64,000 nt of DNA from the NCBI GenBank assembly GCA_964399865.1, contig CAYNRJ010000001.1, positions 266,050-330,049 of the forward strand, written 5' to 3'. The notes under the pieces are model-generated. The model worked only from the letters and a program-made list of their open reading frames with translations. It ran no database searches and was not told where the DNA came from. The position numbers were made by a program, and so were the translations under genes. The first letter of the stretch is position 1; each line of letters starts with the position of its first letter. Of the stretch, positions 2,729 through 57,764 are shown one piece after another. This stretch comes from an uncultured Candidatus Saccharibacteria bacterium. GTDB taxonomy: Bacteria > Patescibacteriota > Minisyncoccia > Phycocordibacterales > UBA2100.

Positions 2729-3640
2729 TTACTGTGTTACTGCCGCTTCTCCGAAAAATTTGTAGTACACGCGATTGCCGAAACGAAGATCAACATATTC
2801 AAGTTCCCCTTCCCGGCCACGTAGAGCATCCGATGAAAGAACCAGCTCAAGGTTTCGCACTATTTTTTCTGCATCCTCATTGAAAGCAATCCGAAGCTTG
2901 TATCCGCGCTCAAGAGAAACAGAAAAATCTTGCTCACTCTCAATCGTTATTACTTTCGGGATGAAATTCTTTTCCTCGAGAAGATGTAGAAGCGTGACCA
3001 CCTGAGCAAACCTCTCAGGAAGAAACTTCTGACCAATAGGATCGACACCCTCAGGAAGCGCGCCTCTAAACGTATACGGGACAGTATATGGTGAAGCCAT
3101 CGGCTCCTCCGCGAAAATAAAACCATTATCATCCATGAGATAACACTCCTCAAGAACGCACCAGCGAGCGCTCGGCCCTCTCTCTGCCACTGTGACACGA
3201 ATTGATTGAGCGAGGAGCGAATCGCGCGAAATATTCACCGAGTGAAGACGAGGGAAATATTTTTGTACACCTTGTTCTAGTGCCCTCCTTGGATAGAGAA
3301 ATACATTTTCTTTTGAGAAAAAGGCATTCGAGCCATCACGAAGCTCCGCTTCGACATATGCGCGTACCAAATCCTCAGAGATATCGTTCGCACCGACCAC
3401 TTCTATTTGTTCGATCGCGAACTGAGGAAGATGTGTTGCATACCCAGCTCCCCACGTCGCTCCTGCGCCGAGAATAAGAATACCGAGTCCGATAAGCACA
3501 CGTGTCCGGCGCCTTTTAGCGCGAAGCGGTGACTTGCGCGCCGCGGGTCGCACCTTAACGGGCGTAGTTGAACGAGAGAAAAGCTCACTATAGATCCCGG
3601 GCTTTTTCTTCCGGAGATCAATTGTTCTTTTTGATGACAT
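2729..3640 (-). CDS. FtsQ/DivIB-like cell-division protein (N-terminal TM anchor plus POTRA-like region)
   Basis: Basic N-terminus, one TM helix (VLIGLGILILGAGATW) and a following QIEVVGANDISEDLVRAYV segment typical of a POTRA/FtsQ domain. Not embedded in a dcw cluster here. Confidence 0.45.
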   Translation of the reverse strand: MSSKRTIDLRKKKPGIYSELFSRSTTPVKVRPAARKSPLRAKRRRTRVLIGLGILILGAGATWGAGYATHLPQFAIEQIEVVGANDISEDLVRAYVEAELRDGSNAFFSKENVFLYPRRALEQGVQKYFPRLHSVNISRDSLLAQSIRVTVAERGPSARWCVLEECYLMDDNGFIFAEEPMASPYTVPYTFRGALPEGVDPIGQKFLPERFAQVVTLLHLLEEKNFIPKVITIESEQDFSVSLERGYKLRIAFNEDAEKIVRNLELVLSSDALRGREGELEYVDLRFGNRVYYKFFGEAAVTQ

Positions 3641-4909: not shown

Positions 4910-5788
4910 ATGCAGTATCATACTAGCATGAAAGACGGCTTAAAACTGCTCTCTCGTAAGGACTTTCCACCCCTCCTTAAAGAAATCCCAGACGCCCCAA
5001 AGAAGCTTTACGTCCGTGGCGAGCTTCCGGATTTCAGAAAAAAATGGCTCGCGGTTGTTGGGAGCCGCGCATGCACGCCGTATGGTCGACAAGCGCTCCG
5101 TCATCTAATAGAGGGGCTGCGTGGATATCCTGTCGTTATCGTATCCGGACTCGCATACGGGATCGATGCCGAAGCACATAAAGCAGCGCTTGAGGCCGGA
5201 TTGCCGACAGTTGCTGTCCCCGGCTCTGGACTTGGCTGGGATGTGCTGTATCCACGCGCGAACGTGCCTCTTGCGCGGGCAATTGTAAAAGCGGGCGGTG
5301 CACTTCTTTCAGAATACGAACCGAATTTCAAAGCGACCGATTATTCTTTTCCCCAAAGAAATCGTGTAATGGCAGGTCTTTGCAATGCGACTCTCATGAT
5401 CGAAGCAAAAGAAAAGTCGGGCTCACTCATTACCGCGCGCCTCACGACTGAATATAATCGCGAACTTCTCGTTGTCCCCGGTTCGATATTCTCCGCGGAA
5501 AGTCGCGGCACTCATCAATTCCTAAAGCTTGGCGCGACGCCGATCACAGAGCCTGCCGACATTCTCCGAGTACTCGATATTAAAACCGAAGTGCGAGAAT
5601 CTGCTGCAATGCGGGCCGATCTTTCTGAAGACGAAAAACGGGTGCTTGAAATCATCAAAAACCCGATGAGTCGAGATGATCTAATTGAGGCGCTCGAATT
5701 ACCGATTTCGGACGCAAATATTTTACTTTCAACTATGGAAATCAAAGAGCTGATTGTAGAAGTATTAGGTACGATCCGTGCGAAGTAG
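4910..5788 (+). CDS. dprA: DNA processing protein DprA (Smf)
   Basis: Rossmann-like DprA core (VVGSRACTPYG, VIVSGLAYGIDAEAH, SGSLITA) plus a C-terminal winged-helix-like tail. Confidence 0.85.
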   Translation: MQYHTSMKDGLKLLSRKDFPPLLKEIPDAPKKLYVRGELPDFRKKWLAVVGSRACTPYGRQALRHLIEGLRGYPVVIVSGLAYGIDAEAHKAALEAGLPTVAVPGSGLGWDVLYPRANVPLARAIVKAGGALLSEYEPNFKATDYSFPQRNRVMAGLCNATLMIEAKEKSGSLITARLTTEYNRELLVVPGSIFSAESRGTHQFLKLGATPITEPADILRVLDIKTEVRESAAMRADLSEDEKRVLEIIKNPMSRDDLIEALELPISDANILLSTMEIKELIVEVLGTIRAK

Positions 5789-5839: not shown

Positions 5840-6295
5840 ATGGCTATGTCGCGCATTATCGCTCGGATGAGCACAGCAGACCGCGTAGAGGCGATCAAGC
5901 AATGCTTGGCGGAAGAGAGACCGAAGTCGGCGATTGCGGCTCTGTTCGACGCCGAGATCGCCGATATCAGAATGTTCATCGAAATGAACTTCCCCAGTTA
6001 TCTGGCTCAGTTCGATCAGTTACCGACTGGTAACCGAGCGCGACCGGAGGAATCACCCGCGCCTGCTCGGCCGAGGAAACCGCGAGGTGTCAGCGGTGGA
6101 ACATCGGCCGGGACCAGCCCAGGACCTAAGCCGGAAGCGCTGGAGATTCCACTAACCGCAAGTGAGCGTCTGCTCGTAGACTTGATCCGCAACCGCTTCC
6201 ACTACGCGCCGGAAGCACGACCGTTCCGATTTCTTCCCCGAGAGATACAGCGGCAGATACGTCAGCGGGCTGTAGACATCATGTACCTGAGATGA
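5840..6295 (+). CDS. hypothetical protein with a Pro/Gly/Ser-rich low-complexity centre (151 aa)
   Basis: Complete ORF with a GAGGGAGA ribosome-binding site. Noticeably more GC-rich than its neighbours. Inserted between dprA and topA. No family recognised. Confidence 0.45.
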   Translation: MAMSRIIARMSTADRVEAIKQCLAEERPKSAIAALFDAEIADIRMFIEMNFPSYLAQFDQLPTGNRARPEESPAPARPRKPRGVSGGTSAGTSPGPKPEALEIPLTASERLLVDLIRNRFHYAPEARPFRFLPREIQRQIRQRAVDIMYLR

Positions 6296-6414: not shown

Positions 6415-8577
6415 ATGAAATTAGTAATAGTAGAATCACCGGCAAAAGCGAAAACGATCGAGAAGTACCTCGGTAAGGGTTTTACCGTGCGCGCATCGGT
6501 CGGTCACATTCGCGATCTGCCAAAGAGCAACAAAGACGCCGTCGATATCGAGGGTGGTTTCGTGCCGCGCTATCAAATCGTAAAAGAGAAACAGCACATA
6601 ATAGATGATCTTCAAAAAGAAGCAGGTAAGGCTGATGAGGTTATCCTAGCGACAGACCCCGACCGTGAAGGCGAAGCTATCGCGTGGCACCTCGCACAGG
6701 CCATCGGCTTAAAGAAACCAAAACGAATCGTATTCCACGAGATTACAGAACACGCAGTCCAAGACGCTCTCGCACACCCACGTCTTATAGACAACGATCT
6801 TCGCAGTGCCCAAGAAGCGCGCCGCGTGCTCGATCGCTTATTCGGCTATGACCTCTCGGGACTCGTATGGAAAAAGGTGCGCTACGGACTCTCCGCAGGC
6901 CGCGTGCAATCCCCTGCGCTCCGAATCATTATGGAAAAAGAACGCGAAATCCGAGCGTTTATACCAGAAAAGTATTGGGTCATTAGCGCGGACATGAGAA
7001 CGAAGCTCGGTAAAAATTTCACTGTTACCTGTGTTGAAGAACCAAAAACAGAAGAGGAGGCTACGCGTATTCTGCGTACCGCCCAAACAGAGCCCTGGTT
7101 CGTACATTCTATAGAAGAATCCGAGCAGTCCCGCGCCCCAAAGGCGCCTTTCACTACATCGACCCTCCAACAGGCGGCTTCCACTCGCCTTGGCTTCTCT
7201 CCTTCCCGCACGATGGGTACTGCACAAAAATTGTACGAAGCGGGTCACATTACATATATGCGAACAGATAGTCCAAACCTTGCTAAGGAGGCGCAAGCTG
7301 CGCTCCTTGGAGTTGTCGAGAGTGAATATGGAAAAGACTACCTAGCACCACGTGAGTACAAGACAAAAAGTAAGACTGCACAGGAGGCGCACGAGGCAGT
7401 GCGTCCTACTGATCCCAAAAAACATTCTGCTGGTGCAAATGATGACCAAAAGAAATTGTATGAGTTGATCCACTCACGCGCACTCGCAAGTCAGATGGCA
7501 GACGCACGAGTCATGCGCACTACAATCTCCACAAGGGCGAGCGATTCCATTCCACTTTTTGCTGCCCGTGGCTCACGTGTCGTATTTGAAGGCTGGCTCA
7601 AAGCGGATCCAGGGGCACGCGGCGAAGAAGTAGAACTTCCAAAAGTTACGGAGGGTGATCCCCTACAACTTCTTGAGGCGCGCTCGGAGGGAAAAGAAAC
7701 TCAACCACCTGGACGCTACAGCGAAGCCGGACTCGTAAAAGAATTGGAGAAACGCGGCATCGGCCGACCTTCAACGTACGCAAGTATCATAAAAACCCTT
7801 GAGGACCGCGGGTATGTAGAAAAGCAGGGACGAACACTTCTCCCTACCTATACAGGCGACGTCGTCTCAACATTTTTGGAGAATCATTTTGCCGATTACA
7901 TAAGCGACGGCTTCACAGCAGAAATGGAGAACGAACTCGATGAGATCGCCGATGGTAAACGAAAGTACGAAAAGACGATGAAAGATTTCTATGGACCTTT
8001 CACGAAGGCAGTGAAGAGTAAGGCCAAAATTGAGAAGCTCACAAACATGGGTGATGCACCGAAGGAATTCCCCTGCCCTATCTGTAAGGGTCCGATGGTC
8101 TACAAGCTGTCCAAAAACGGGCGCTTCATGAGCTGTGCAAAATTCCCTGAGTGCCTCGGGGCTCGTAAGGAAGATGGAAATGAGATCGCGCCTCCAAAGG
8201 ATCTCGGCGAAGCTTGCCCTCAGTGTAAAGACGGAAAATTAATCCTTCGTGAAGGACGTTTCGGCCAATTTATTGCGTGCGCAAACTATCCAAAATGTAA
8301 GTTCGTTAAGAAAGATCCGGCAGAAGAAGCTCGCTCGAAAACAGGTGTTGCCTGCCCTACGTGTGGAAAAGGAGAAATGGTGGAGCGTCGAGGACGTTTT
8401 GGACTCTTCTATTCTTGCTCCAATTATCCTGACTGTAAGAACGCGATCAAAGCAAAACCTACCGGTAGGATCTGCAGTCTTTGTGGAAGTTTGATGATGG
8501 AGGGAACGAAAACGATCCCTGAGCGTTGTTCGAATAAGACGTGCGCAAATCACCGACCAGATAAGCTCAAGAAATAG
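6415..8577 (+). CDS. topA: DNA topoisomerase I with four C-terminal zinc-ribbon repeats
   Basis: TOPRIM start MKLVIVESPAKAKTIEKYLGK, a catalytic Tyr region, then four CxxC...CxxC ribbons. The ATG at 6415 is preferred over the upstream GTG at 6379. Confidence 0.9.
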   Translation: MKLVIVESPAKAKTIEKYLGKGFTVRASVGHIRDLPKSNKDAVDIEGGFVPRYQIVKEKQHIIDDLQKEAGKADEVILATDPDREGEAIAWHLAQAIGLKKPKRIVFHEITEHAVQDALAHPRLIDNDLRSAQEARRVLDRLFGYDLSGLVWKKVRYGLSAGRVQSPALRIIMEKEREIRAFIPEKYWVISADMRTKLGKNFTVTCVEEPKTEEEATRILRTAQTEPWFVHSIEESEQSRAPKAPFTTSTLQQAASTRLGFSPSRTMGTAQKLYEAGHITYMRTDSPNLAKEAQAALLGVVESEYGKDYLAPREYKTKSKTAQEAHEAVRPTDPKKHSAGANDDQKKLYELIHSRALASQMADARVMRTTISTRASDSIPLFAARGSRVVFEGWLKADPGARGEEVELPKVTEGDPLQLLEARSEGKETQPPGRYSEAGLVKELEKRGIGRPSTYASIIKTLEDRGYVEKQGRTLLPTYTGDVVSTFLENHFADYISDGFTAEMENELDEIADGKRKYEKTMKDFYGPFTKAVKSKAKIEKLTNMGDAPKEFPCPICKGPMVYKLSKNGRFMSCAKFPECLGARKEDGNEIAPPKDLGEACPQCKDGKLILREGRFGQFIACANYPKCKFVKKDPAEEARSKTGVACPTCGKGEMVERRGRFGLFYSCSNYPDCKNAIKAKPTGRICSLCGSLMMEGTKTIPERCSNKTCANHRPDKLKK

Positions 8578-10389: not shown

Positions 10390-11375
10390 ACGCTGAAATT
10401 GCGAATGGAGTAGAGATCGTCTTCATTCGGCTTCGCCTCCTGCTTTACAGCTGGATTTGGACTCTCGTTAGATGAAACCTCGTTCGCTGACGCTACCTCT
10501 TCTGGAGTAGCCGTCTGTGCTTCAGGAACCGGAGATACACTTGCGGCGGTCTTCTGCTCTCGAGACAAAAGGTCACGAATGGCGGCAAGGTCGTCGACTG
10601 AGAAAAATTCGATAAGCACCTTTCCGCCCTGATCTTTTTTCTCGATGCGAACACGGGTACCAAGCGATTCGGTTAACTCACGCTCTAATAGAAGAAGTTC
10701 CGGTGTTAGATCAGGCTTGCGAGCACGCTCTGTCGCTATGCGACGCGCCACTTGTTCGGCATCACGCACGGTGAGCTTACGCGTCATGATCTCGTGGAAT
10801 AGGGTTTTCTGCTCCTCGGGACGATCTGTGAGCATAAGAAGAGGTCTCGTATGACCTTCGTTGATATCACCAGCCGCGAGCGAATTCTGCATCTCTTCAG
10901 GGAGCATGAGAATGCGCAGAGTGTTCGAGACATACTCACGGCTCTTTCCTACCCGTTTCCCTATTTCCGTGTGCTTCAAACCGAATTCTTTAAAAAGCCG
11001 ATCGAATGCCTTTGCTCTGTCTATCGCATTCAAATCCTCACGTTGCAGGTTCTCAATGATCGCAAGCTCCAGTTTCATCCGATCGTCGTCCTCTCCGTTT
11101 CGAATGACAACAGGTACCTGTAAGATTCCCGCTAATTTCGCAGCGCGGAGTCTGCGTTCTCCAGCGATAAGCTCGTATTCGACTGAAATACCCTCTCCGG
11201 GACGCTCTACTTCCTTTCGCGTGACGGTAAGGGGTTGGAGTACTCCGTACTGACGAATCGACTCGGAAAGCGACGAAAGTGCCGTCTCATCAAAGACTTT
11301 GCGTGGTTGAAATGGGTTAGGTTTTATTCGCTCCACTTCCACCCAAAAAATAGCATCGCCGTAATATCCCGACAT
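10386..11375 (-). CDS. parB: ParB/Spo0J-like partition protein
   Basis: ParB N-terminal domain (VERIKPNPFQPRK, GERRLRAA), a helix-turn-helix and a C-terminal dimerisation region. No adjacent parA. Confidence 0.8.
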   Translation of the reverse strand: MSGYYGDAIFWVEVERIKPNPFQPRKVFDETALSSLSESIRQYGVLQPLTVTRKEVERPGEGISVEYELIAGERRLRAAKLAGILQVPVVIRNGEDDDRMKLELAIIENLQREDLNAIDRAKAFDRLFKEFGLKHTEIGKRVGKSREYVSNTLRILMLPEEMQNSLAAGDINEGHTRPLLMLTDRPEEQKTLFHEIMTRKLTVRDAEQVARRIATERARKPDLTPELLLLERELTESLGTRVRIEKKDQGGKVLIEFFSVDDLAAIRDLLSREQKTAASVSPVPEAQTATPEEVASANEVSSNESPNPAVKQEAKPNEDDLYSIRNFSV

Positions 11376-11407
11376 GCCGAAAATTATATCACGCTACTTT
11401 TATATTT

Positions 11408-11532
11408 TGTGCCGGGAGAGAGAATCGGTCACGGGTTTTCGCGTGCTCGCGAAACCCGCTACCCTGCCTCACTCGCCTACGCTCGCTCCGGCCTTCGATT
11501 CTCTGCTCCTTTCTCGCTTCGCTCGAAATTTG
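11408..11532 (-). repeat. tRNA-Leu(CAA) 3' trailer module
   Basis: Read on the minus strand after the tRNA: spacer AAATTTCGAGCGAAGCGAGAAAGGAGCAG, then AGAGAATCGAAG, then a 66-nt insert beginning gccggagcg with gcgagtgaggc and a gggtttcgcg/cgcgaaaccc hairpin, then GATTCTCTCTCCCGGCACA, which is identical to the tRNA 3' end. Confidence 0.6.
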
Positions 11533-11614
11533 TGCCGGGAGAGAGAATCGAACTCTCACATCTTGCGATACACGATTTTGAGTCGTGCGCGTCTACCAAT
11601 TCCGCCATCCCGGC
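11533..11614 (-). tRNA. tRNA-Leu (anticodon CAA), long variable arm
   Basis: Cloverleaf on the reverse strand: acceptor GCCGGGA/TCCCGGC, anticodon loop CTCAAAA, long variable arm, T-arm GAGAG-TTCGATT-CTCTC, discriminator A. CCA is not encoded (the tRNA is followed by CA). Confidence 0.8.
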
Positions 11615-11669
11615 AATGGGCCCGCGAAAGACTCGCGTAGGCGGCCAGAGTGTCTATAATACGCCAGCT

Positions 11670-12569
11670 ATGGGTAAGAAACAAAAGGTGCTGATCCTGG
11701 TGGGACCCACATCCTCCGGCAAAAGCGCTCTCGCTGTCGAGCTCGCAAAGAAGCTAGATGGTGAGATTATTTCCGCTGATTCTCGGCAAGTATACAGAGG
11801 GCTTAATATCGGAACTGGGAAGATTACGAAACGCGAAATGAGAGGGGTGCGCCATCACCTTTTGGACGTCGCATCCCCGAGGCGCATATTTACTGCACAC
11901 GAATACGAGAGCGCTGCACGAAGTGTGATCAATGAAATCGCTGCGCGCGGGAAACTGCCCATTATTGCCGGCGGTACCGGATTCTATATAGATGCGCTCG
12001 TGGGCCGCATTACCCTTCCCAACGTACCTGTAAATACAAAATTGCGAGCGATTCTTGAAAAAAAGACTGCAATGCAGCTGTTTGCCCTTTTAAATAAGCG
12101 AGACAAGGAGCGAGCAAAAAACATAGACCCGCACAACTCACGACGACTTATCCGCGCACTCGAGATCGTATCAGCTCTCGGGTCAGTCCCCCACCCTCCC
12201 GCACATCGTGCTTCGTACGATACTCTGTGGATTGGTATCGAGTCGCCGCTTTCGGAACTTCTAGAAAAGATCAAGGTGCGACTTTCCGCGCGTATAAGAC
12301 AAGGCATGGTTGGCGAAGCAAAGAAGCTTCGAGCAGGTGGATTATCATGGAAACGAATGGAGTCCCTCGGGCTTGAATACCGTGCTCTCGCTCGCCTACT
12401 TCAAAACAAGATCACGAGAAAGGAATTTGAATCAGAACTTCTTGGAGAAATTCGACGCTATGCAAAACGCCAGATTACATATTGGAAACGCAATAAAGAC
12501 ATTCTATGGTTTGAGAAGTTTAAAAAAACTACCATTGAGAGACACGTGCTGGCATGGCTGAAAGAATAA
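11670..12569 (+). CDS. miaA: tRNA dimethylallyltransferase
   Basis: P-loop start MGKKQKVLILVGPTSSGKSALAVELA and the SADSRQVYRGLNIGT motif. The ORF-track 5' extension from 11235 would overlap the tRNA and parB and was rejected. Confidence 0.85.
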   Translation: MGKKQKVLILVGPTSSGKSALAVELAKKLDGEIISADSRQVYRGLNIGTGKITKREMRGVRHHLLDVASPRRIFTAHEYESAARSVINEIAARGKLPIIAGGTGFYIDALVGRITLPNVPVNTKLRAILEKKTAMQLFALLNKRDKERAKNIDPHNSRRLIRALEIVSALGSVPHPPAHRASYDTLWIGIESPLSELLEKIKVRLSARIRQGMVGEAKKLRAGGLSWKRMESLGLEYRALARLLQNKITRKEFESELLGEIRRYAKRQITYWKRNKDILWFEKFKKTTIERHVLAWLKE

Positions 12570-12741
12570 TGCGGGCGATGTAGGAATCTCCTTCGCCTCT
12601 CAGCTCGCCGTCGCTCGCTTCGGACTAGGCACCGCCTCACTGCCTCGCCTGCTGGCTCGGCAACGTTCCGGCGTTCGATTCCTACTCGCGCAATGCGCAG
12701 GCATTGCGCTATCGCACCGCAAAACACTTCGTGTCATTTTG
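12570..12741 (-). repeat. tRNA-Trp 3' trailer module
   Basis: Minus-strand order: spacer with a gcgcaatgc/gcattgcgc hairpin, then TAGGAATCGAAC, then an 85-nt insert gccggaacgttgcc...gcagtgaggcggtgcctag...gaggcgaaggag, then ATTCCTACATCGCCCGCA, identical to the tRNA-Trp 3' end. The insert is about 80% identical to the Tyr insert. Confidence 0.6.
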
Positions 12742-12812
12742 CGGGCGATGTAGGAATCGAACCTACGACGTCGGTTTTGGAGACCGAAGTTATACCATTT
12801 AACTAATCGCCC
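12742..12812 (-). tRNA. tRNA-Trp (anticodon CCA)
   Basis: Acceptor GGGCGAT/ATCGCCC, anticodon loop CTCCAAA, T-arm GTAGG-TTCGATT-CCTAC, discriminator G. CCA is not encoded. Confidence 0.8.
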
Positions 12813-12859
12813 TTCGGTGAAAGTATAGGGCTAGAAGGTGGAAGCTCAAAGCGAGAGGC

Positions 12860-13018
12860 TTATTTCTTGGCTTCTTTGTGCTTCGTGTGAGCTCTGCACC
12901 ATTTGCAGAATTTCTTCAATTCAATCTTGCGCTCCACCAACTTCCTATTCTTGCGCGACCAATAGTTAATGCGGCCGCACTTCTGGCAAGCAATCTTTAT
13001 TAGTTGATCCTGGGACAT
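12860..13018 (-). CDS. rpmG: 50S ribosomal protein L33
   Basis: A 52-aa ORF that is absent from the ORF track. Translation MSQDQLIKIACQKCGRINYWSRKNRKLVERKIELKKFCKWCRAHTKHKEAKK carries the L33 zinc-ribbon CxxC...CxxC. It lies just upstream (minus strand) of tRNA-Trp. Confidence 0.8.
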   Translation of the reverse strand: MSQDQLIKIACQKCGRINYWSRKNRKLVERKIELKKFCKWCRAHTKHKEAKK

Positions 13019-13051
13019 AGCTCAGCACTATACAGAAGTGATTGGAGGGAG

Positions 13052-13576
13052 TCAATCACACAGCGGCTCCCACGGCCTGAGGAGGCCTGCAGGCATTCCG
13101 CTCTCTTCACCGGTCTCCGGATCAGTAGGCCGGTCAGCAAGTAATACGCGCATGAGCGTATCCACCACAAGCCACCCCACAAGGATGATAATAAGTCCGA
13201 CAAACACGTTGGTGAATATGCTTCGCGCTTCGTGCGCCTTACTCGCGCTGCCCCCCGCGGTGACGTGCTTCCAACCGGCCCATGCGAACATAATCGCGGA
13301 GAAAAATATGGCGATATAAATGCCCCCATTTAGCACCCTTTTGGCGAGCTCTCCGATGTGGCAAACGGTGCACTCAGTCCCCTCTTTTACACCATCTCCA
13401 TCCCTATCGATGGCTACGCCGTCACATGGAACTATCTGCTCACCAAACCCCGCCGCAGCAAAGGCGATCGACGGCAACAAGGACATCAGTACGATGAATC
13501 CGAGGACCCAACCCACCGCTAACTTGCGATACATGTGAGATATTGTAACACCAAAAAACATTCGCCCCTCGCTCAC
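13052..13576 (-). CDS. small Cys-rich membrane protein (signal/anchor, CDGVAIDRDGDGVKEGTECTVCH segment, two TM helices)
   Basis: The topology resembles the 2-TM small-protein array at 23.7-26.4 kb. No confident family assignment. Confidence 0.45.
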   Translation of the reverse strand: MSEGRMFFGVTISHMYRKLAVGWVLGFIVLMSLLPSIAFAAAGFGEQIVPCDGVAIDRDGDGVKEGTECTVCHIGELAKRVLNGGIYIAIFFSAIMFAWAGWKHVTAGGSASKAHEARSIFTNVFVGLIIILVGWLVVDTLMRVLLADRPTDPETGEESGMPAGLLRPWEPLCD

Positions 13577-13605
13577 TTTTTGCTTTTAGGTATAATCAAC
13601 CCGTT

Positions 13606-13688
13606 GCGCCGATGGTAGAGCGGTCAAATACGACGCGCTGTAGACGCGTTGCCTTCGGGCTACGGGGGTTCGAATCCCTCTCGGCGCA
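13606..13688 (+). tRNA. tRNA-Tyr (anticodon GTA), long variable arm
   Basis: Acceptor GCGCCGA/TCGGCGC, anticodon loop CTGTAGA, variable arm GCCTTCGGGCTAC, T-arm GGGGG-TTCGAAT-CCCTC, discriminator A. Followed by CA, not CCA. TATAAT at 13591-13596 lies just upstream. Confidence 0.8.
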
Positions 13689-13891
13689 CAAAATGAAAAT
13701 ACCGGCCTCGTGCCGGTCGTTTTCTTTTTGTGGCACGAAGCGAGCTGCCTGCGCAGCTTGCGAGGGGGATTCGAACGCCGGAACGATGCGAGGCGAGGCG
13801 AGTACGCCGAGCCGTGAGGCGGTGCCTAGCCCGAGTCGAGCGACGGCGAGACAAGAGGCGAAGGAGAATCCCCTTCTCTTCTCGGCGCACA
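13689..13891 (+). repeat. tRNA-Tyr 3' trailer module
   Basis: Spacer with a terminator-like hairpin and CACGAAGCGAGCTGCCTGCGCAGCTTGCGAG, then GGGGGATTCGAAC (13764-13776), then a 90-nt insert gccggaacgatgcg...gccgtgaggcggtgcctag...gaggcgaaggag (13777-13866), then AATCCCCTTCTCTTCTCGGCGCACA, which copies the tRNA-Tyr T-stem and 3' end. Confidence 0.6.
13701..13730 (+). terminator. hairpin plus T-run (accggc ctcgt gccggt cgttttctttttg) inside the tRNA-Tyr trailer
   Basis: Read directly from the sequence. Confidence 0.4.
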
Positions 13892-13896
13892 CAAAT

Positions 13897-13925
13897 AAAA
13901 CACCGCCAATTGGCGGTGTTTTATA
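13897..13925. terminator. bidirectional terminator hairpin (aaaacaccgcc aatt ggcggtgtttt) between the tRNA-Tyr region and the clpB 3' end
   Basis: Perfect 11-bp stem flanked by A-runs and T-runs on both strands. Confidence 0.45.
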
Positions 13926-13942
13926 ATTGATGACCCAAGCTA

Positions 13943-16633
13943 TTAAGCTGTTGATCCGATCTTCGCCCGCGCACGAACGCCCCGAGCTCGTTCTGGACCT
14001 TTTCTGACGTCAAAGGTGAACTCCCCGTCTTTGATATCAACGAATACAGAGCCGCCCTCCATGACACCACGAGCCACCATAAAGTTCGCAACTGGAGTCA
14101 TGATCTTCGTCTGGATAAGACGCTTCAGAGGACGCGCTCCATACTGAGGGTTGTACCCTTCTTTTGCGAGATACTCGATGACACCTTGAGATACCGAGAG
14201 CGCGATCCTCTTTTCTTCAAGACGCTTCGCAACGATATCCACCTGCATTCTCACGATATCCATGATTGCATCACGAGAGAGAATGTTGAAGAGAATTATT
14301 TCGTCTAGACGGTTGAGGAATTCCGGACGGAAGACATCCTTAAGGGATCCCATGACCTTGTCCTTCACCTGATCATAGCGCTCTCCCTCAGTCTTTGTAA
14401 GGCCACTGCCGAAACCGAGGCCAGACATTTTATCTATGTGCTCAGATCCGATGTTTGAGGTGAGGATGATGACCGTGTTCTTGAAGTTAACAATGCGCCC
14501 CTTCGCATCCGTTAGTCGTCCATTGTCTAGAACCTGGAGAAGTATGTTGAAGACTTCTGGATGTGCTTTTTCTATTTCGTCGAAGAGAATGACTGAATAC
14601 GGTCGGTGACGAACTAATTCTGTGAGACCACCGCCTTCATCATGCCCTACATAACCCGGAGGAGAGCCGATCATTTTCGAGACTGAATGCTTCTCCATGT
14701 ATTCCGACATATCGACGCGGATGAGTGTCTTTTCACTGTCGAAAAGGAATTCTGCGAGTGAGCGTGTAAGCTCAGTCTTTCCAACTCCTGTTGGTCCAAG
14801 GAAGAGAAAACTCCCTACCGGACGATTAGGGTCAGAGATACCGGCACGACTCCGCTTGATTGCATCTGCGACTTTTTGTACTGCCTCGTCTTGTCCCACA
14901 ATGCGCTTTTTGAGTTCTGCCTCCATGCGAGAAAGTTTTTCCGCTTCTTCCTCAAGCATTCGTGAGACCGGCACCCCAGTCCAGCGGGACACAACAGAGG
15001 CAATATCCTCTTCAGTAATCTCCTCTTTCAACACACGACGTGTCGCCTGCAATTTCTTGAGGCGCTTCGTTGCAGTCTCAATCTCTTTCTCAAGATGAGG
15101 AATCTTCGCATATCGAATTTCTGCAGCCTTCGTGAGATCGACTGCGCTTTCTGCACTTTCTGCATCAATACGTGCTTTCTCTAGCTCATTCTTTGCACGT
15201 TTAATTTCTGCGAGTGTCTCTTTCTCGTTCTTCCATTTAAGCTCGAGCTCGCGTGTTGAATCCTTTAGGTCGGCGACTTCCTTCTCGATGGATTCTGTTC
15301 TTGTGCGGGCCTTGCTTTCGCCTTCCGTTGCTTCCTTCTTTAGAGCTTCGCGCTCAATCTCAAGACGCGTGATCTTTCTGTGCGCGTCCTCAAGAAGCGG
15401 CGGCTTGTTCTCAAGGGAAAGTCTGAGAGCAGAAGATGCTTCATCAATTAGGTCTATCGCCTTGTCAGGGAGGAAACGCTCAGTGATGTAGCGAGATGAA
15501 AGCTGGACTGCAGCTACGATAGCGGCATCGGTTATGTGAACTCCATGATAGAGCTCATAGCGTTCCTTGAGCCCCCGAAGGATCGCGATTGCATCCTCAA
15601 CCGTTGGCTCGTTCACATAGACCGGCTGGAATCGTCTTGTGAGCGCAGGATCGTGTTCGATGTGTCTCTGATACTCCTTCAAGGTCGTGGCCCCGATCAC
15701 GCGGATTTCGCCGCGAGCGAGCGCGGGCTTCAACATGTTGGAAGCATCCATCGAGCCTTCAGCAGCCCCTGCTCCTACGAGAGTATGTATCTCGTCAATA
15801 AAGAGAATGATCTTACCTTCCGAACGCTCAACTTCTTTCATGACTGCCTTCAAGCGCTCTTCAAATTCTCCACGATATTTCGTACCAGCGATGAGGAGTC
15901 CAAGATCAAGTTGGACCAATTCCTTCCCACGAAGCGATTCCGGCACATCGCTCGAAGCGATGCGCTGTGCGAGTCCTTCTGCAACTGCAGTCTTTCCAAC
16001 ACCTGCTTCTCCAATGAGTATCGGGTTATTTTTTGTACGACGGCTAAGGATCTGGATCACGCGAGTTATTTCTGTATCGCGACCAATGACGGGATCGAGT
16101 TTATTCTCGCGAGCGCGTTCGGTAAGAGAGCGAGCGAAACGAGCGAGAGCCCGCGGCTTCTTTGGCTCTTCCACATCGCGAATCTTCCCTTCTTTAATGT
16201 CGGAAAGAACGCGTGCAAGGGTCGCGCGGTCAATCCTGAATCGTGCGAGGATCTCCTGTGCAGGTCCTGGATGTTCTATGAGACCAAGTAGAAGATGTTC
16301 TGGAGAGACGAACTGATCATTGAAGGATGCGGCGATCCTTGGAGCGGCCTCGAACACTCGCACCAATTCCGGTGTCAGGTACAGCTGAAACGACGGAGAA
16401 ACCGTGGTACTTCCCGTTGAACCCTCTATAAGCTCTAAGACAGAATCGGTGAGATGGGCGACGTCTATATCTACCTGCTCGAGCATAGGTAGTACCATCG
16501 ACTCCTCTTGAGTAAGGAGTGCTGCAAGAAGATGTAGAGTGGATACCTGATTGTGCCCCCGCTCTACAGCCAGCTGGTGGGCTCTGTGTATCGCCTCTTT
16601 AGCTTTTGTTGTGTAGTTATGAAATGGAGCCAT
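13943..16633 (-). CDS. clpB: chaperone ClpB (two AAA+ domains with a middle coiled-coil)
   Basis: Clp N-domain, two Walker A sites ([18 protein letters not shown]) and a long coiled-coil M-domain. At 896 aa it is full length. Confidence 0.9.
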
Positions 16634-57020: not shown

Positions 57021-57764
57021 TGCAGTGAGGTCCCACCTCACTGCATTATCGTTCGAAATTTTCCTTCGTAAGACTTGCGTAATAATCTCTAGACTCGAGA
57101 AGCATTCGACTAATCGATAGCTGTTCGCTGACCTCGAATACCTCTTTCGATAAAATTGGGTTCTCAGATCGTCGTTCGTGTGCTAGCAAACTTGAGTAGG
57201 GATAATCAGAGAGCTTTCGTTGTAACGAGCGCATGTTTCGTACTTTCCCTTCTTTCCAGCCAGGCTCATAGAGCTCAGAAGGATTACAGTGAATGTATTG
57301 CAAGACTTTCTGAAAATAACGATCGTCCCCAACATGGCGAGATCGAAACGGCCCCGTGAATAAATACCCTACGCGCTCATGCTTAGCATTGAAATACATG
57401 GTATACGCTGTTCCAATCTTTCGCATAAATGACGTTATCCCGCCCTCTGTTAATTCTTTAAGCAGCAGATGATAATGGTTGGGCATTAAACAATACGCCC
57501 CAATCGCGACAATGGGTGTGCCCCGTTCATCCGACAATACATCTGAAAGACGTGGTTTTCGAGTATTGTAAAGACTGACTTGCCTAGTGCCATTTGCCAG
57601 GTATAGGAGCATCAGAAACCGATTCGCATCGTATTCATTGTCAAAAAGATTGCGCTTATCGACACCTCTATTAAAGCAGTGGTACCACTCATCTATTCCA
57701 AATTTCACCGCTCGGGCCATCCGAAAAGCATAGCATGCGTGCAGTGAGGTCCCACCTCACTGCA
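57021..57764 (-). mobile_element. REP-RAYT-REP unit: IS200-like/REP-associated tyrosine (HUH, Y1) transposase gene flanked by identical hairpins
   Basis: The hairpin tgcagtgaggtcccacctcactgca occurs at 57021-57045 and again at 57740-57764, directly abutting the ORF's stop and start. Confidence 0.6.
57046..57720 (-). CDS. IS200-like / RAYT tyrosine (HUH, Y1) transposase
   Basis: HUH motif in LMPNHYHLLL, conserved WYHCFNRG, GYLFTGPFRSRHV and YIHCNPSE with the catalytic Tyr region. Confidence 0.65.
   Translation of the reverse strand: MARAVKFGIDEWYHCFNRGVDKRNLFDNEYDANRFLMLLYLANGTRQVSLYNTRKPRLSDVLSDERGTPIVAIGAYCLMPNHYHLLLKELTEGGITSFMRKIGTAYTMYFNAKHERVGYLFTGPFRSRHVGDDRYFQKVLQYIHCNPSELYEPGWKEGKVRNMRSLQRKLSDYPYSSLLAHERRSENPILSKEVFEVSEQLSISRMLLESRDYYASLTKENFER

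Follow-up and report, generated by a model that had tools for sequence, protein, structure and literature searches.

Structured trailers behind tRNA genes of Patescibacteria: an apparently undescribed family of probable T-loop-targeting mobile elements

Overview

In the analysed stretch of DNA from an ultra-small bacterium (64,000 nt, hereafter the window), the tRNA-Leu(caa), tRNA-Trp and tRNA-Tyr genes are each followed by a same-strand module whose far end repeats the 3' end of that tRNA. We interpret these trailers as small, non-autonomous mobile elements of one family, with the T-loop of tRNA genes as their target, and assign this reading a probability of about 0.55. Mobility is inferred from how the copies are distributed, and the family is apparently undescribed; our literature search found no published account of it. 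The elements are about 120-200 nt long, carry no protein gene, and are repetitive in CPR/Patescibacteria. A miniature mobile element of this kind was the first of three unranked readings in the first-pass annotation. It best fits the new evidence since the modules occupy more than 100 loci and 19 isotypes, the repeat starts at C56 or G57, an orthologous site is empty, tandem arrays with different cores occur, and near-identical cores are found behind different tRNAs.

Modules at three tRNA loci

The tRNA-Leu(caa) gene (11532-11614, minus strand; called by ARAGORN, and at 59.6 bits by the Rfam tRNA model) is intact, and its last ~22 nt are the first copy of a direct repeat. It is followed on the same strand by a spacer (11510-11531) and a left arm, GGAGCAGAGAATCGAA (11494-11509), which is the reverse complement of the T-loop, the 3' strand of the T-stem and the start of the acceptor strand. 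The diverged core (11428-11493; fold z -3.7) comprises a short hairpin A with tandem G.A loops and a plain hairpin B. The right arm, CGATTCTCTCTCCCGGCACAAA (11406-11427), directly repeats the 3' end of tRNA-Leu from C56 onward, as recognised from the sequence repeat and from an empty site in the relative L134; the original downstream flank follows it.

The tRNA-Trp(cca) gene (12741-12812, minus strand; ARAGORN; Rfam tRNA, 70.3 bits) is also intact. The spacer of its module (12722-12740) is predicted to form a small hairpin with a U-run, whose stem is kept and whose loop is changed in L134. Next comes a segment that we call accC, TGCGGTGCGAT (12711-12721), which in the predicted fold can pair with the 3' strand of the acceptor stem, the discriminator and CA. 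Hairpin H1 (12686-12710) has the family-conserved base GC..GCG and is homologous to H1 of the Tyr module, with compensatory changes. The left arm, GTAGGAATCGAAC (12673-12685), matches the reverse complement of tRNA positions 53-65 exactly, pairing with GTTCGATTCCTAC at 13/13 positions. The conserved core (12589-12672) is a three-way junction supported by covariation and by a covariance model score of 109.8 bits, with a hairpin A and a helix P3 around hairpin B (CGAG-CGACG-GCGAG). The right arm (12570-12588) repeats the tRNA from G57 through the discriminator and CA, all on the minus strand, with 19/19 nt identical.

On the plus strand, the intact tRNA-Tyr(gta) gene (13606-13689; ARAGORN and Rfam) is followed by a flank with a terminator-like hairpin (13690-13729), by an accC segment, GTGGCACGA (13730-13738), predicted to pair with the acceptor 3' copy, and by H1 (13739-13763), assigned through homology to the Trp H1. 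The left arm, GGGGGATTCGAAC (13764-13776), is an inverted copy of the T-loop and T-stem 3' strand (19 nt, 89%). The conserved core (13777-13865) scores 100.4 bits with the covariance model, and the right arm (13866-13891) directly repeats the 3' end of tRNA-Tyr but has partly decayed, with 12 nt exact and 85% identity over 26 nt. A second terminator-like palindrome (13895-13924, plus strand), found as an inverted and direct repeat, lies 3' of the module; it parallels the one after tRNA-Tyr and is a diverged duplicate of that flank.

The similarity between the trailers is real and far above chance, as the first-pass annotation had proposed. The Trp and Tyr inserts are 78-81% identical across 125 nt, and a covariance model built without the Leu insert recovers it as a homolog at 50.3 bits (E 8.5e-12). 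The far end of each trailer does copy the 3' end of the adjacent tRNA, over 20-22 nt in the case of Leu. The spacer motif TGCCTGCGCA, noted earlier as shared, is the conserved hairpin H1. The five remaining tRNAs of the window have no module. One piece had been misread. What was described as a T-stem 5' strand plus TTCGAA is the reverse complement of the T-loop and T-stem 3' strand, in the Tyr module as in the Trp module; this piece often extends into the complement of the acceptor 3' strand, and its pairing partner is the distal direct copy. In the Trp and Tyr modules, the further piece upstream complements the acceptor 3' strand, discriminator and CA.

We consider it practically refuted that the trailers are decayed tandem duplicates of tRNA genes whose mutual similarity is coincidental. 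Tandem isoacceptor tRNAs can mimic the 3'-end repeat, and two loci of this type (L129 and L047) were false positives of our repeat screen. However, ARAGORN and Rfam called only the three upstream tRNAs, and no module was called as a tRNA (RF00005). The modules have no D arm or anticodon arm; one optional hairpin lies where these would be, and the core replaces the T-loop. The shared non-tRNA core, its covariation and covariance-model E values down to 1e-30 refute this explanation.

Structure and covariation of the core

On the tRNA-sense strand, the order is the intact tRNA, a short flank or spacer, an inverted arm, the core of ~85 nt, the direct copy, and the original downstream DNA. The inverted arm is the reverse complement of positions ~54-74 of its own tRNA and is often split by H1. 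The core is a three-way junction of two hairpins with three tandem G.A internal loops, and a purine-rich tract, GAGAGGCGAAGGAG, lies immediately 5' of the right repeat. The distal copy runs from C56/G57 to the 3' end of the tRNA and beyond. The two arms pair, so that the sense single strand forms a long stem capped by the core. Other core types exist that follow the same arm logic.

Checking the modules for covariance, as had been suggested, revealed strong covariation in the core. Across 34 pairs, 82% were paired, whereas shuffles reached 63% and sliding the partner gave 33-46%; both sides had changed in 741 cells compared to 277 in the shuffles. The tRNA-sense strand gave the better fold in 105/105 copies among the matches listed.

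The first-pass annotation had also seen half of a REP palindrome in each insert, and had pointed to the RAYT-like gene at 57 kb. A Y1_Tnp ORF (57046-57720, minus strand) is indeed present with two flanking REP palindromes. Folded single-stranded DNA is what HUH enzymes act on, and the modules fold best on one strand. Nevertheless, the modules are very unlikely to be REP/REPIN-type repeats mobilised by this transposase. Within the window, the REP sequence GCAGTGAGGTCCCACCTCACTGC occurs only at 57022 and 57741, flanking the ORF. Outside the REPs there is a single occurrence of the shared 9-mer, where 0.31 would be expected, and the family consensus at that position is GCGAGGCGG; the resemblance is at the level of chance and leaves the proposed tie unsupported. 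IS200/IS605-type insertion is not known to produce a target duplication of 20-60 nt, and Y1 genes are not enriched near the copies.

Abundance and association with tRNA genes

A pattern scan of metagenomes for further copies found at least 120 loci. Among the matches listed, 93/125 are located 19-251 nt downstream of a tRNA on the same strand, and most of the others are at contig ends. Of the 25 matches found by the model alone in unselected flanks, 18 likewise follow a same-strand tRNA at a distance of at most 70 nt. The matches listed and the covariance-model finds together cover 19 tRNA isotypes. About 17-38% of tRNAs bear a module; which tRNAs do so differs among relatives, and the orientation is always that of the tRNA.

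At least 8 nt of the 3' end of the copy's own tRNA are repeated exactly in 80 of the 93 copies among the matches listed, and the left arm tracks the T-loop variant of its own tRNA. In the same set, the direct repeat starts at C56 in 24 copies and at G57 in 13, its length varies from 8 to 66 nt (median 16 nt, maximum 66 nt), and in nine cases it includes at least 10 nt of non-tRNA flank, sometimes with a terminator.

Strong terminator-like hairpins are often found between tRNA and module. At L092, modules are interleaved in a tRNA-Val/Pro/Ala cluster that has one promoter-like site and no sense-strand terminators. At L069, a genuine group I intron is located inside the tRNA upstream of the module; the modules themselves have no match to RF00028.

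Searches for known families and proteins

A permissive scan (E<=1) of positions 11000-14500 with Rfam 15 returned just the tRNAs and sub-threshold noise, and a scan of five module loci at gathering thresholds had no match on the modules. No protein family was enriched near the copies; in particular, no transposase, integrase, recombinase or Y1 gene was linked to them. No reverse transcriptase was among the recurrent neighbours; the analysis covered about 10% of the source genome, and a trans-acting enzyme may be encoded elsewhere in it.

Tyrosine integrases that target tRNA genes classically leave an identity block from the T-loop to or past the tRNA 3' end and restore the tRNA. The modules have this block, starting in the tRNA loop, together with a restored tRNA. 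They could therefore be scars of conventional integration, in which attL and attR remnants at a 3'-end attB survive the deletion of nearly the whole element. We find this highly improbable. The material between the repeats is the same structured sequence of 100-180 nt at more than 100 loci and 19 isotypes, and not a set of random remnants; it is non-coding, with no integrase or cargo, and none of these genes lies nearby. The inverted copy of the target is foreign to att sites, and 2.9 million viral contigs contain essentially no copy of the core, with only one chance-like match.

Gain, loss and conservation between relatives

The nearest neighbor of a core is found at a different tRNA in 72/79 cases. 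In one sample, the cores behind a tRNA-Pro (L051) and a tRNA-Ser (L058) are 100% identical, whereas the arms differ. The H1 hairpins of this pair have diverged (19/24) despite the identical cores, and gene conversion of the core only fits this pair as well as transposition does. One tRNA-Lys is followed by a tandem array of three or four modules that differ in core type; within this array, a module-sized indel of 155 nt, flanked by 29-nt repeats, distinguishes two strains and can be explained by recombination.

Comparison of orthologous tRNA loci, another check suggested at the outset, revealed presence/absence differences. The Leu site is empty in L134, where the flank after the tRNA corresponds to the flank after the right arm in the window, and the Tyr module is absent at the L134 tRNA-Tyr. 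L137 contains a module remnant. The arms are decayed in many copies, and some copies are truncated or solo. We found neither an excised form nor a clean before/after pair of one insertion in close strains.

The Trp modules of the window and L134 are 94% identical, while 4-fold sites are saturated at 28-41% identity; the substitutions are in loops, preserve wobble pairs, or are compensatory. In three further orthologous pairs, module identity likewise exceeds that of silent sites (0.77 vs. 0.46, 0.97 vs. 0.87, and 0.87 vs. 0.78), whereas one pair has changed at the neutral rate (0.81 vs. 0.82). The conservation of the Trp module is the pattern that an RNA useful to the host would show, and it weighs against the mobile-element reading.

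The modules might accordingly be genes for a structured non-coding RNA that benefits the host and is linked to tRNA transcription units, being made from the tRNA precursor or by read-through. This RNA could serve as an element for the 3' end, for termination or for stability, or as a binding platform for a protein specific for tandem G.A motifs; the tRNA-derived sequence would merely close the stem, new copies would be rare, and gene conversion would homogenise the cores. The four conserved pairs, the strong and strand-specific covariation, the invariable orientation, and the modules inside the L092 tRNA cluster partly support the co-transcribed RNA that the first-pass annotation had considered. 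However, the minority of tRNAs that bear a module varies among relatives, decayed, truncated or solo copies are frequent, one pair is neutral, several tandem copies with different cores can follow one tRNA, the direct repeat can include non-tRNA flank, and terminator-like hairpins often precede the module. The proposed release by RNase Z or RNase P as a tRNA mimic is weak because the discriminator and following bases are paired and the T-loop is replaced, which makes a mimic of RNase P/Z or CCA-enzyme substrates implausible. Overall, we regard the host RNA as a rather unlikely origin for the family. That some copies, such as the Trp copy of the window, are now kept under purifying selection is in part shown by these comparisons.

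A possible route of insertion

As a mobile element, the module would enter the tRNA gene at position 55/56, in the T-loop. The segment that begins at tRNA position 56 and ends at some variable point downstream would be duplicated, leaving the gene intact, and the displaced original 3' end would become the distal arm. The inverted arm would be made locally from the target and not imported. In the scheme that we prefer, a staggered break would leave a bottom-strand 3' end in the T-loop; this end would prime the copying of the folded core (target-primed), and the new strand would snap back on its own tRNA-derived primer region and join the other end. Alternatively, and with the same topology, a folded single-stranded hairpin that mimics the target might integrate, as in CTX-phage. 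The putative enzyme would act in trans. After insertion, as the comparisons show in part, recombination between repeats shuffles copies, cores become homogenised within genomes, and many copies decay. The snap-back scheme does not explain H1, which is located inside an arm that should form in one piece. If the intermediate is RNA, the terminator-like hairpins before the module argue against efficient co-transcription.

More tentatively, and with less confidence than in mobility as such, we suggest that the modules might be a new, self-retargeting class of mobile element. A folded core of ~85 nt, as RNA or single-stranded DNA, would be inserted in the T-loop, which is universally conserved, of any tRNA gene by a host or trans-acting enzyme. 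Both arms, direct and inverted, would be copied from the target, so that each copy would be specific for its tRNA and harmless to it, and some loci would have been co-opted as conserved RNA.

If the elements are mobile, they have a way to invade essential genes harmlessly, with target-matching arms that are re-specified at each insertion; we know of no described prokaryotic element that does this. Should the self-retargeting proposal be true, bacteria would have a hitherto unknown equivalent of target-primed or hairpin-mediated insertion in which the target templates the ends. The elements reside in roughly a fifth to a third of the tRNA loci of otherwise extremely streamlined genomes, which suggests that they are very successful parasites or pay their way. 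With its strong covariation and three tandem G.A motifs, the core represents an abundant family of nucleic acids that awaits a protein partner or catalytic role. For annotation, the modules yield false att sites and false partial tRNAs, and account for many "orphan" tRNA 3' fragments in CPR assemblies.

Comparison with known systems

As in tRNA elements of tyrosine integrases, the direct repeat extends from the T-loop to or past the 3' end, the tRNA is intact, and the original 3' end is distal. In contrast, the module repeats enclose only ~100-180 nt with no integrase or cargo, an inverted copy of the target is added, one core serves 19 isotypes, and the repeat can take in local non-tRNA flank.

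Structured non-coding RNAs of tRNA units (plant dicistronic tRNA-snoRNA, mascRNA, and the tRNA-like domain of bacterial Y RNA) also place a sense structured RNA directly 3' of a tRNA, and tandem G.A motifs are shared. The modules differ in that they lack box C/D and H/ACA motifs and do not mimic a T-loop or D-loop; their stem is a copy plus an inverted copy of the neighboring tRNA, and their distribution is patchy, repetitive, and decaying.

LTR retroelements and TRIMs are laid out as a repeat, a primer-binding site complementary to a tRNA 3' end, an internal region, a purine-rich tract, and a second repeat. The modules likewise have a tRNA 3'-end complement just inside the left repeat and the purine-rich tract before the right one. 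With target-primed retroelements, LTR/TRIM elements and tRNA-derived SINEs, they share a target duplication of variable length with one end fixed, a dependence on tRNA loci, and a conserved sense-strand structure, as expected for an RNA intermediate. However, no reverse transcriptase was found near the modules, the complementary segment follows genomic flank and not a CCA end, and the repeats are the tRNA's own 3' end. To our knowledge, elements with such a layout are not known in bacteria.

The IMEX elements of CTX-phage and integron attC sites, which integrate as a folded single-stranded DNA hairpin that imitates the target site and depend on XerCD or IntI, resemble the modules in layout. 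In both, an inverted copy of the site, a spacer of ~90 nt (in the modules, the 85-nt core) and a direct copy lie at one junction, with a restored target at the other; only one strand, in the modules the sense strand, needs its structure, and the stem reproduces the target in double-stranded form. The target of the modules is a tRNA gene and not dif or attI, of which no core sequence was evident in the modules; moreover, the whole module is a hairpin plus a short spacer, and its arms vary by tRNA.

MITEs, REP/REPIN sequences and PATEs derived from IS200/IS605 are, like the modules, small, non-coding, multicopy, hairpin-forming, and presumably mobilised in trans. Their terminal repeats are fixed element sequence, whereas those of the modules are copied from each target; the arms are not identical terminal inverted repeats, but vary with the T-loop variant and stems of each tRNA. 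Instead of a short target-site duplication of fixed length (2-10 bp), the modules have a long and variable one with a fixed start and a variable end, and their insertion site is strictly the T-loop of a tRNA.

Modules in the window

ARAGORN called eight tRNAs in the window. Three of them, tRNA-Leu(caa) (11532-11614, minus strand), tRNA-Trp (12741-12812, minus strand), and tRNA-Tyr (13606-13689, plus strand), each also identified with Rfam, are followed on the tRNA-sense strand by a module made up of a spacer, an inverted arm, a core, and a direct arm. The direct arm copies the 3' end of the tRNA that it follows; the repeat finder gave 20-22 nt for Leu and 19/19 nt for Trp, and in the Tyr module 12 nt are exact and 26 nt match at 85%. 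The remaining five tRNAs lack such a copy, as the first-pass annotation had noted. Its description of the upstream piece as a T-stem 5' strand plus TTCGAA was mistaken: this piece is the reverse complement of the T-loop and the T-stem 3' strand. The repeat finder matched the inverted arm to its own tRNA at 13/13 positions for Trp (GTTCGATTCCTAC / GTAGGAATCGAAC) and over 19 nt at 89% for Tyr. The likeness seen earlier between the Trp and Tyr inserts also holds, the modules being 78-81% identical over 125 nt (repeat finder).

When the sense strand was folded, each module formed a single long hairpin (z-scores of -3.1 to -4.9 relative to shuffles for Leu, Trp, and Tyr). A further upstream piece in the Trp and Tyr modules, accC, forms pairs with the copied acceptor 3' strand, its discriminator, and the 'CA' after it. 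Between accC and the inverted arm, a conserved hairpin branches off (H1, the TGCCTGCGCA motif). The modules lack a T-loop, and their discriminator and the bases after it are engaged in pairing, so a tRNA mimic, handled by RNase P or RNase Z as suggested earlier or by the CCA enzyme, is unlikely.

The neighboring genes in the window are housekeeping genes (ParB, RelA/SpoT, MiaA, L33, a pilin-like protein, and ClpB), and every relative of MiaA comes from Patescibacteria/CPR (of the Kaiserbacteria, Paceibacteria, and Parcubacteria type). In five of the eight window tRNA genes (3' ends at 11532, 12741, 13689, 20961, and 21080), 'CA' directly follows the discriminator and no CCA is encoded; tRNA-Leu(tag) is the only one of the eight that encodes CCA. 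Two identical 23-nt REP palindromes (GCAGTGAGGTCCCACCTCACTGC) lie on either side of an IS200-like Y1 transposase ORF of the RAYT type (57046-57720, minus strand, within 57022-57763); they have no further copies in the 64 kb.

Abundance and placement of the family

The modules belong to a large family, and copies are present in relatives, where the first-pass annotation had advised searching. Two of 12 reference-genome MiaA loci carry a module, L001 at tRNA-Trp and L003, a Campbellbacteria MAG, at tRNA-Ser(gga); both copies match their own organism's tRNA. In metagenome contigs, a pattern of two conserved blocks (sense GAWTCGAANNNCGG..(35-65)..CGAGYGACGRCGAG) matched at least 120 loci. Placement is strictly in the sense orientation 3' of tRNAs: 93 of the 125 listed matches lie 19-251 nt 3' of a same-strand tRNA, and the rest are mostly at contig ends, with two false positives in coding sequence and a few solo copies. 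In 80 of the 93 listed tRNA-linked copies, the core is followed by 8 nt or more that reproduce the 3' end of their own tRNA exactly; many of these stretches are 19-27 nt long.

We built a covariance model from 105 distinct copies among the matches listed, with the Leu module excluded. In the window it scored the Trp module at 109.8, the Tyr module at 100.4, and the Leu module at 50.3 bits, with nothing else above 15 bits; the Leu score bears out the proposed homology of the Leu insert. Matches of the model to a non-tRNA core excluded the possibility that the modules are tRNA pseudogenes. In unselected flanks of the metagenome loci the model detected 25 additional copies, of which 18 lie no more than 70 nt 3' of a tRNA on the same strand. 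At least 19 tRNA isotypes carry modules, and about 17% of the tRNAs in the same metagenome loci that did not trigger selection bear a model-detected module. For 76 of 237 tRNAs, 12 nt or more of the 3' end recur as a direct copy no farther than 450 nt away; a few of these are tandem isoacceptors.

No gene is linked to the modules. When 2,881 ORFs from 133 loci were clustered all against all, only housekeeping families emerged, the recurrent neighbors including MiaB/MiaA, LepA, HtrA, TrmH-like, and TsaD. A phage origin was rejected: a pattern scan of 2.9 million viral contigs gave one chance-like match with no tRNA nearby. With this single match and no linked enzyme family near the copies, it is very improbable that the modules are scars left by integrases. 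The connection drawn earlier between the inserts and the REP/RAYT locus at 57 kb was rejected after exact and mismatch searches; these searches, and again the lack of a linked enzyme family, leave hardly any credibility to the modules being REP/RAYT repeats.

Fold of the core

The core is a three-way junction of about 85 nt. Of the 17 pairs predicted by RNAalifold, 14 show compensatory double changes. We tested on the alignment a hand-derived structure of 34 pairs, comprising P1 (the stem between the two arms), hairpin A, and P3, which encloses hairpin B. In this structure 82% of cells are paired, versus 63% in column shuffles and 33-46% with the partner slid, and both sides have changed in 741 cells versus 277 in shuffles; the covariation proposed earlier as a check is therefore strong. 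All three internal loops of the core are tandem G.A/A.G motifs, as read directly from the sequence.

The conserved fold is strand-specific. Among the matches listed, the tRNA-sense strand is more stable than its complement in 105/105 copies (-47.6 vs -39.0 kcal/mol), and in well-aligned helices G.U outnumbers A.C by 47 to 16. The overall G.U and A.C counts on the MAFFT alignment (122 vs 116) are uninformative, and the strand assignment rests on the folding-energy asymmetry, not on these counts. Because of the covariation, the folding asymmetry, and the G.U excess in well-aligned helices, the core structure is selected in a single-stranded form of the tRNA-sense strand, as RNA or DNA.

Arms, direct repeats, and spread of cores

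Both arms derive from the target. The inverted arm tracks the T-loop variant of each tRNA (AATCGAA, ATTCGAA, ACTCGAA, GCTCGAA, or ATTTGAA). The direct repeat has a fixed start in the T-loop, at C56 in 24 copies and G57 in 13, and a variable end (median 16 nt, maximum 66 nt); in nine copies it continues at least 10 nt past the tRNA into the local flank, in some through the terminator (all among the matches listed). Therefore, DNA or precursor sequence was duplicated, not mature tRNA. Copying of accC from a mature CCA-ending tRNA was likewise rejected, as accC tracks the genomic flank (AAC in comparison locus L118). The idea that the inverted arm is more constrained than the direct arm was also rejected (39 vs 28 of 235 positions, P = 0.30); across copies, one arm decays about as fast as the other.

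Near-identical cores occur at different tRNAs. Among the matches listed, 72 of 79 cores have their nearest neighbor at a different tRNA. In L051 (tRNA-Pro) and L058 (tRNA-Ser), two loci from the same sample, the cores are 100% identical, the arms are entirely different, and H1 matches at 19/24 positions; this pair suggests that gene conversion of cores within genomes probably also operates. The same arm logic is found in at least two other core types (L018/L040; L067) and in long variants. A putative third core type in L129 and L047 was rejected as tandem tRNA-Pro genes. The module-bearing contig L129 also contains a LOOT RNA (RF03000, 85.9 bits) at 1994-2113.

Tandem arrays combine different cores. 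In L042 (4330-5100) and L054 (331-910), an array of three to four tandem modules, with at least two core types among them, lies 3' of tRNA-Lys(ttt); these arrays, from strains about 99% identical at this locus, differ by 155-nt and 34-nt indels. The 155-nt indel is module-sized and flanked by 29-nt repeats. Recombination between repeats explains the arrays and some indels. In L040 (about 5230-5300, oriented), the distal arm 3' of tRNA-Gly(ccc) has an acceptor strand of the tRNA-Gly(tcc) type (TCTCGCTC) and is followed by a truncated second unit resembling that of L074, which suggests recombination between modules of different tRNA loci.

A tmRNA as target in L069 was rejected; the upstream gene is a tRNA split by a group I intron (RF00028, 71 bits; 668-897), which is why ARAGORN missed it. 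In L092 (2435-3452) the order is tRNA-Val, module, tRNA-Pro, module, tRNA-Ala, module, module. With one promoter-like site upstream and no terminator-like sites on the sense strand, these modules probably lie inside a polycistronic tRNA transcript.

Gain, loss, and constraint among relatives

Empty, decayed, and truncated sites are all present. The closest available relative, L134, has a MiaA 73% identical to that of the window; fourfold degenerate sites are saturated between the two (28-41% identical). At the orthologous Leu locus, where the first-pass annotation had advised comparing presence and absence, the tRNA of L134 has no module, and its immediate 3' flank is the sequence that follows the direct arm in the window. 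The two loci form an empty-site/filled-site pair. The tRNA-Tyr of L134 also has no module and lies on the opposite strand to that of the window. The Trp module is present in L134 and 94% identical over 171 nt; the differences are in a loop, a wobble-preserving A-to-G change in an arm, one compensatory pair, and unpaired positions. Two other orthologous module pairs are constrained relative to silent sites (0.77 vs 0.46; 0.97 vs 0.87), and one is neutral (0.81 vs 0.82). Among more distant relatives, L001 has a diverged Trp module (17.8 bits with the covariance model), and L004, L008, L010, L012, and L136 have no module.

A further relative, L137, retains a module remnant whose inverted arm matches its own tRNA at 13/13 positions. 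At 3155-3249 (minus strand), in a tRNA-Tyr-like 3' region, half a module lies between two copies of ATCCCTCCCG. No intact tRNA-Tyr was called in this region, so partial deletion of the module may have broken the gene.

In the window, tRNA-Tyr and a promoter-like TATAAT region are on the plus strand (13540-13930), whereas in every examined relative tRNA-Tyr is on the same strand as tRNA-Trp (L134 7980-8170, L001 8389-8476, L136 3769-3852). The tRNA-Tyr segment therefore underwent inversion in the lineage of the window, and it is this lineage that has the Tyr module. In L001 the initial ~20 nt of tRNA-Leu(caa) (acceptor 5' strand and start of the D-arm) are repeated at 5868-5950, about 60 nt upstream of the tRNA; unlike the 3' modules, this is a 5'-end duplication. 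In L134 the L33 gene has its 3' end partly duplicated (7263-7400).

The conservation of the Trp module and the tRNA-operon context in L092 would fit modules that are purely host-functional RNA. This reading is unlikely in view of the patchy distribution, the decayed copies, the presence of several unlike cores at a single tRNA, and the duplicated flank. Given the strong conservation of the Trp module, the host may have co-opted some copies, or the lineage may persist because it keeps finding new sites while selection maintains a functional fold.

Proposed mechanism of insertion

We infer that the modules are mobile elements of a non-autonomous kind and that their point of entry is position 55/56 of the T-loop. 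Insertion would duplicate the tRNA from position 56 to a variable endpoint and so leave the tRNA intact, and the inverted arm would be synthesized from the target in the process. In the scheme we propose, a staggered break would leave a bottom-strand 3' end in the T-loop, from which the core is copied; having snapped back on the tRNA-derived region that served as its primer, the new strand would be joined to the other end. Such snap-back copying would explain the fixed start and variable end of the direct repeat, the contiguous inverted arm of 16-18 nt in copies without H1 (L016, L124), the lack of a spacer between the first repeat and the inverted arm in young copies, and the way in which the arms are specified anew at each tRNA. 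It leaves H1 unexplained. Alternatively, a folded single-stranded hairpin with a target-mimicking stem could integrate, as in CTX phage; this would give the same final topology, and either route may have been taken.

Comparison with known systems

Permissive and gathering-threshold scans found no Rfam match to the modules. Our literature search found no description of these elements, although such absence is no proof of novelty; neither duplications of the T-loop nor repeats are mentioned in a 2026 survey that covered the tRNA genes of 95 complete Patescibacteria genomes and was concerned with group I introns. The modules come closest to integrative elements that target tRNA genes, elements that integrate as folded ssDNA, repeats of the MITE/REP type, retroelements of the target-primed or LTR type, and tRNA-linked small RNAs. 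Each has some features in common with the modules; the integrative elements and the MITE/REP-type repeats each failed at least one tested defining feature, and the others also depart from the modules in some respects. The module family is real and far larger than the window alone implied, and it is unexplained by any of the families tested.
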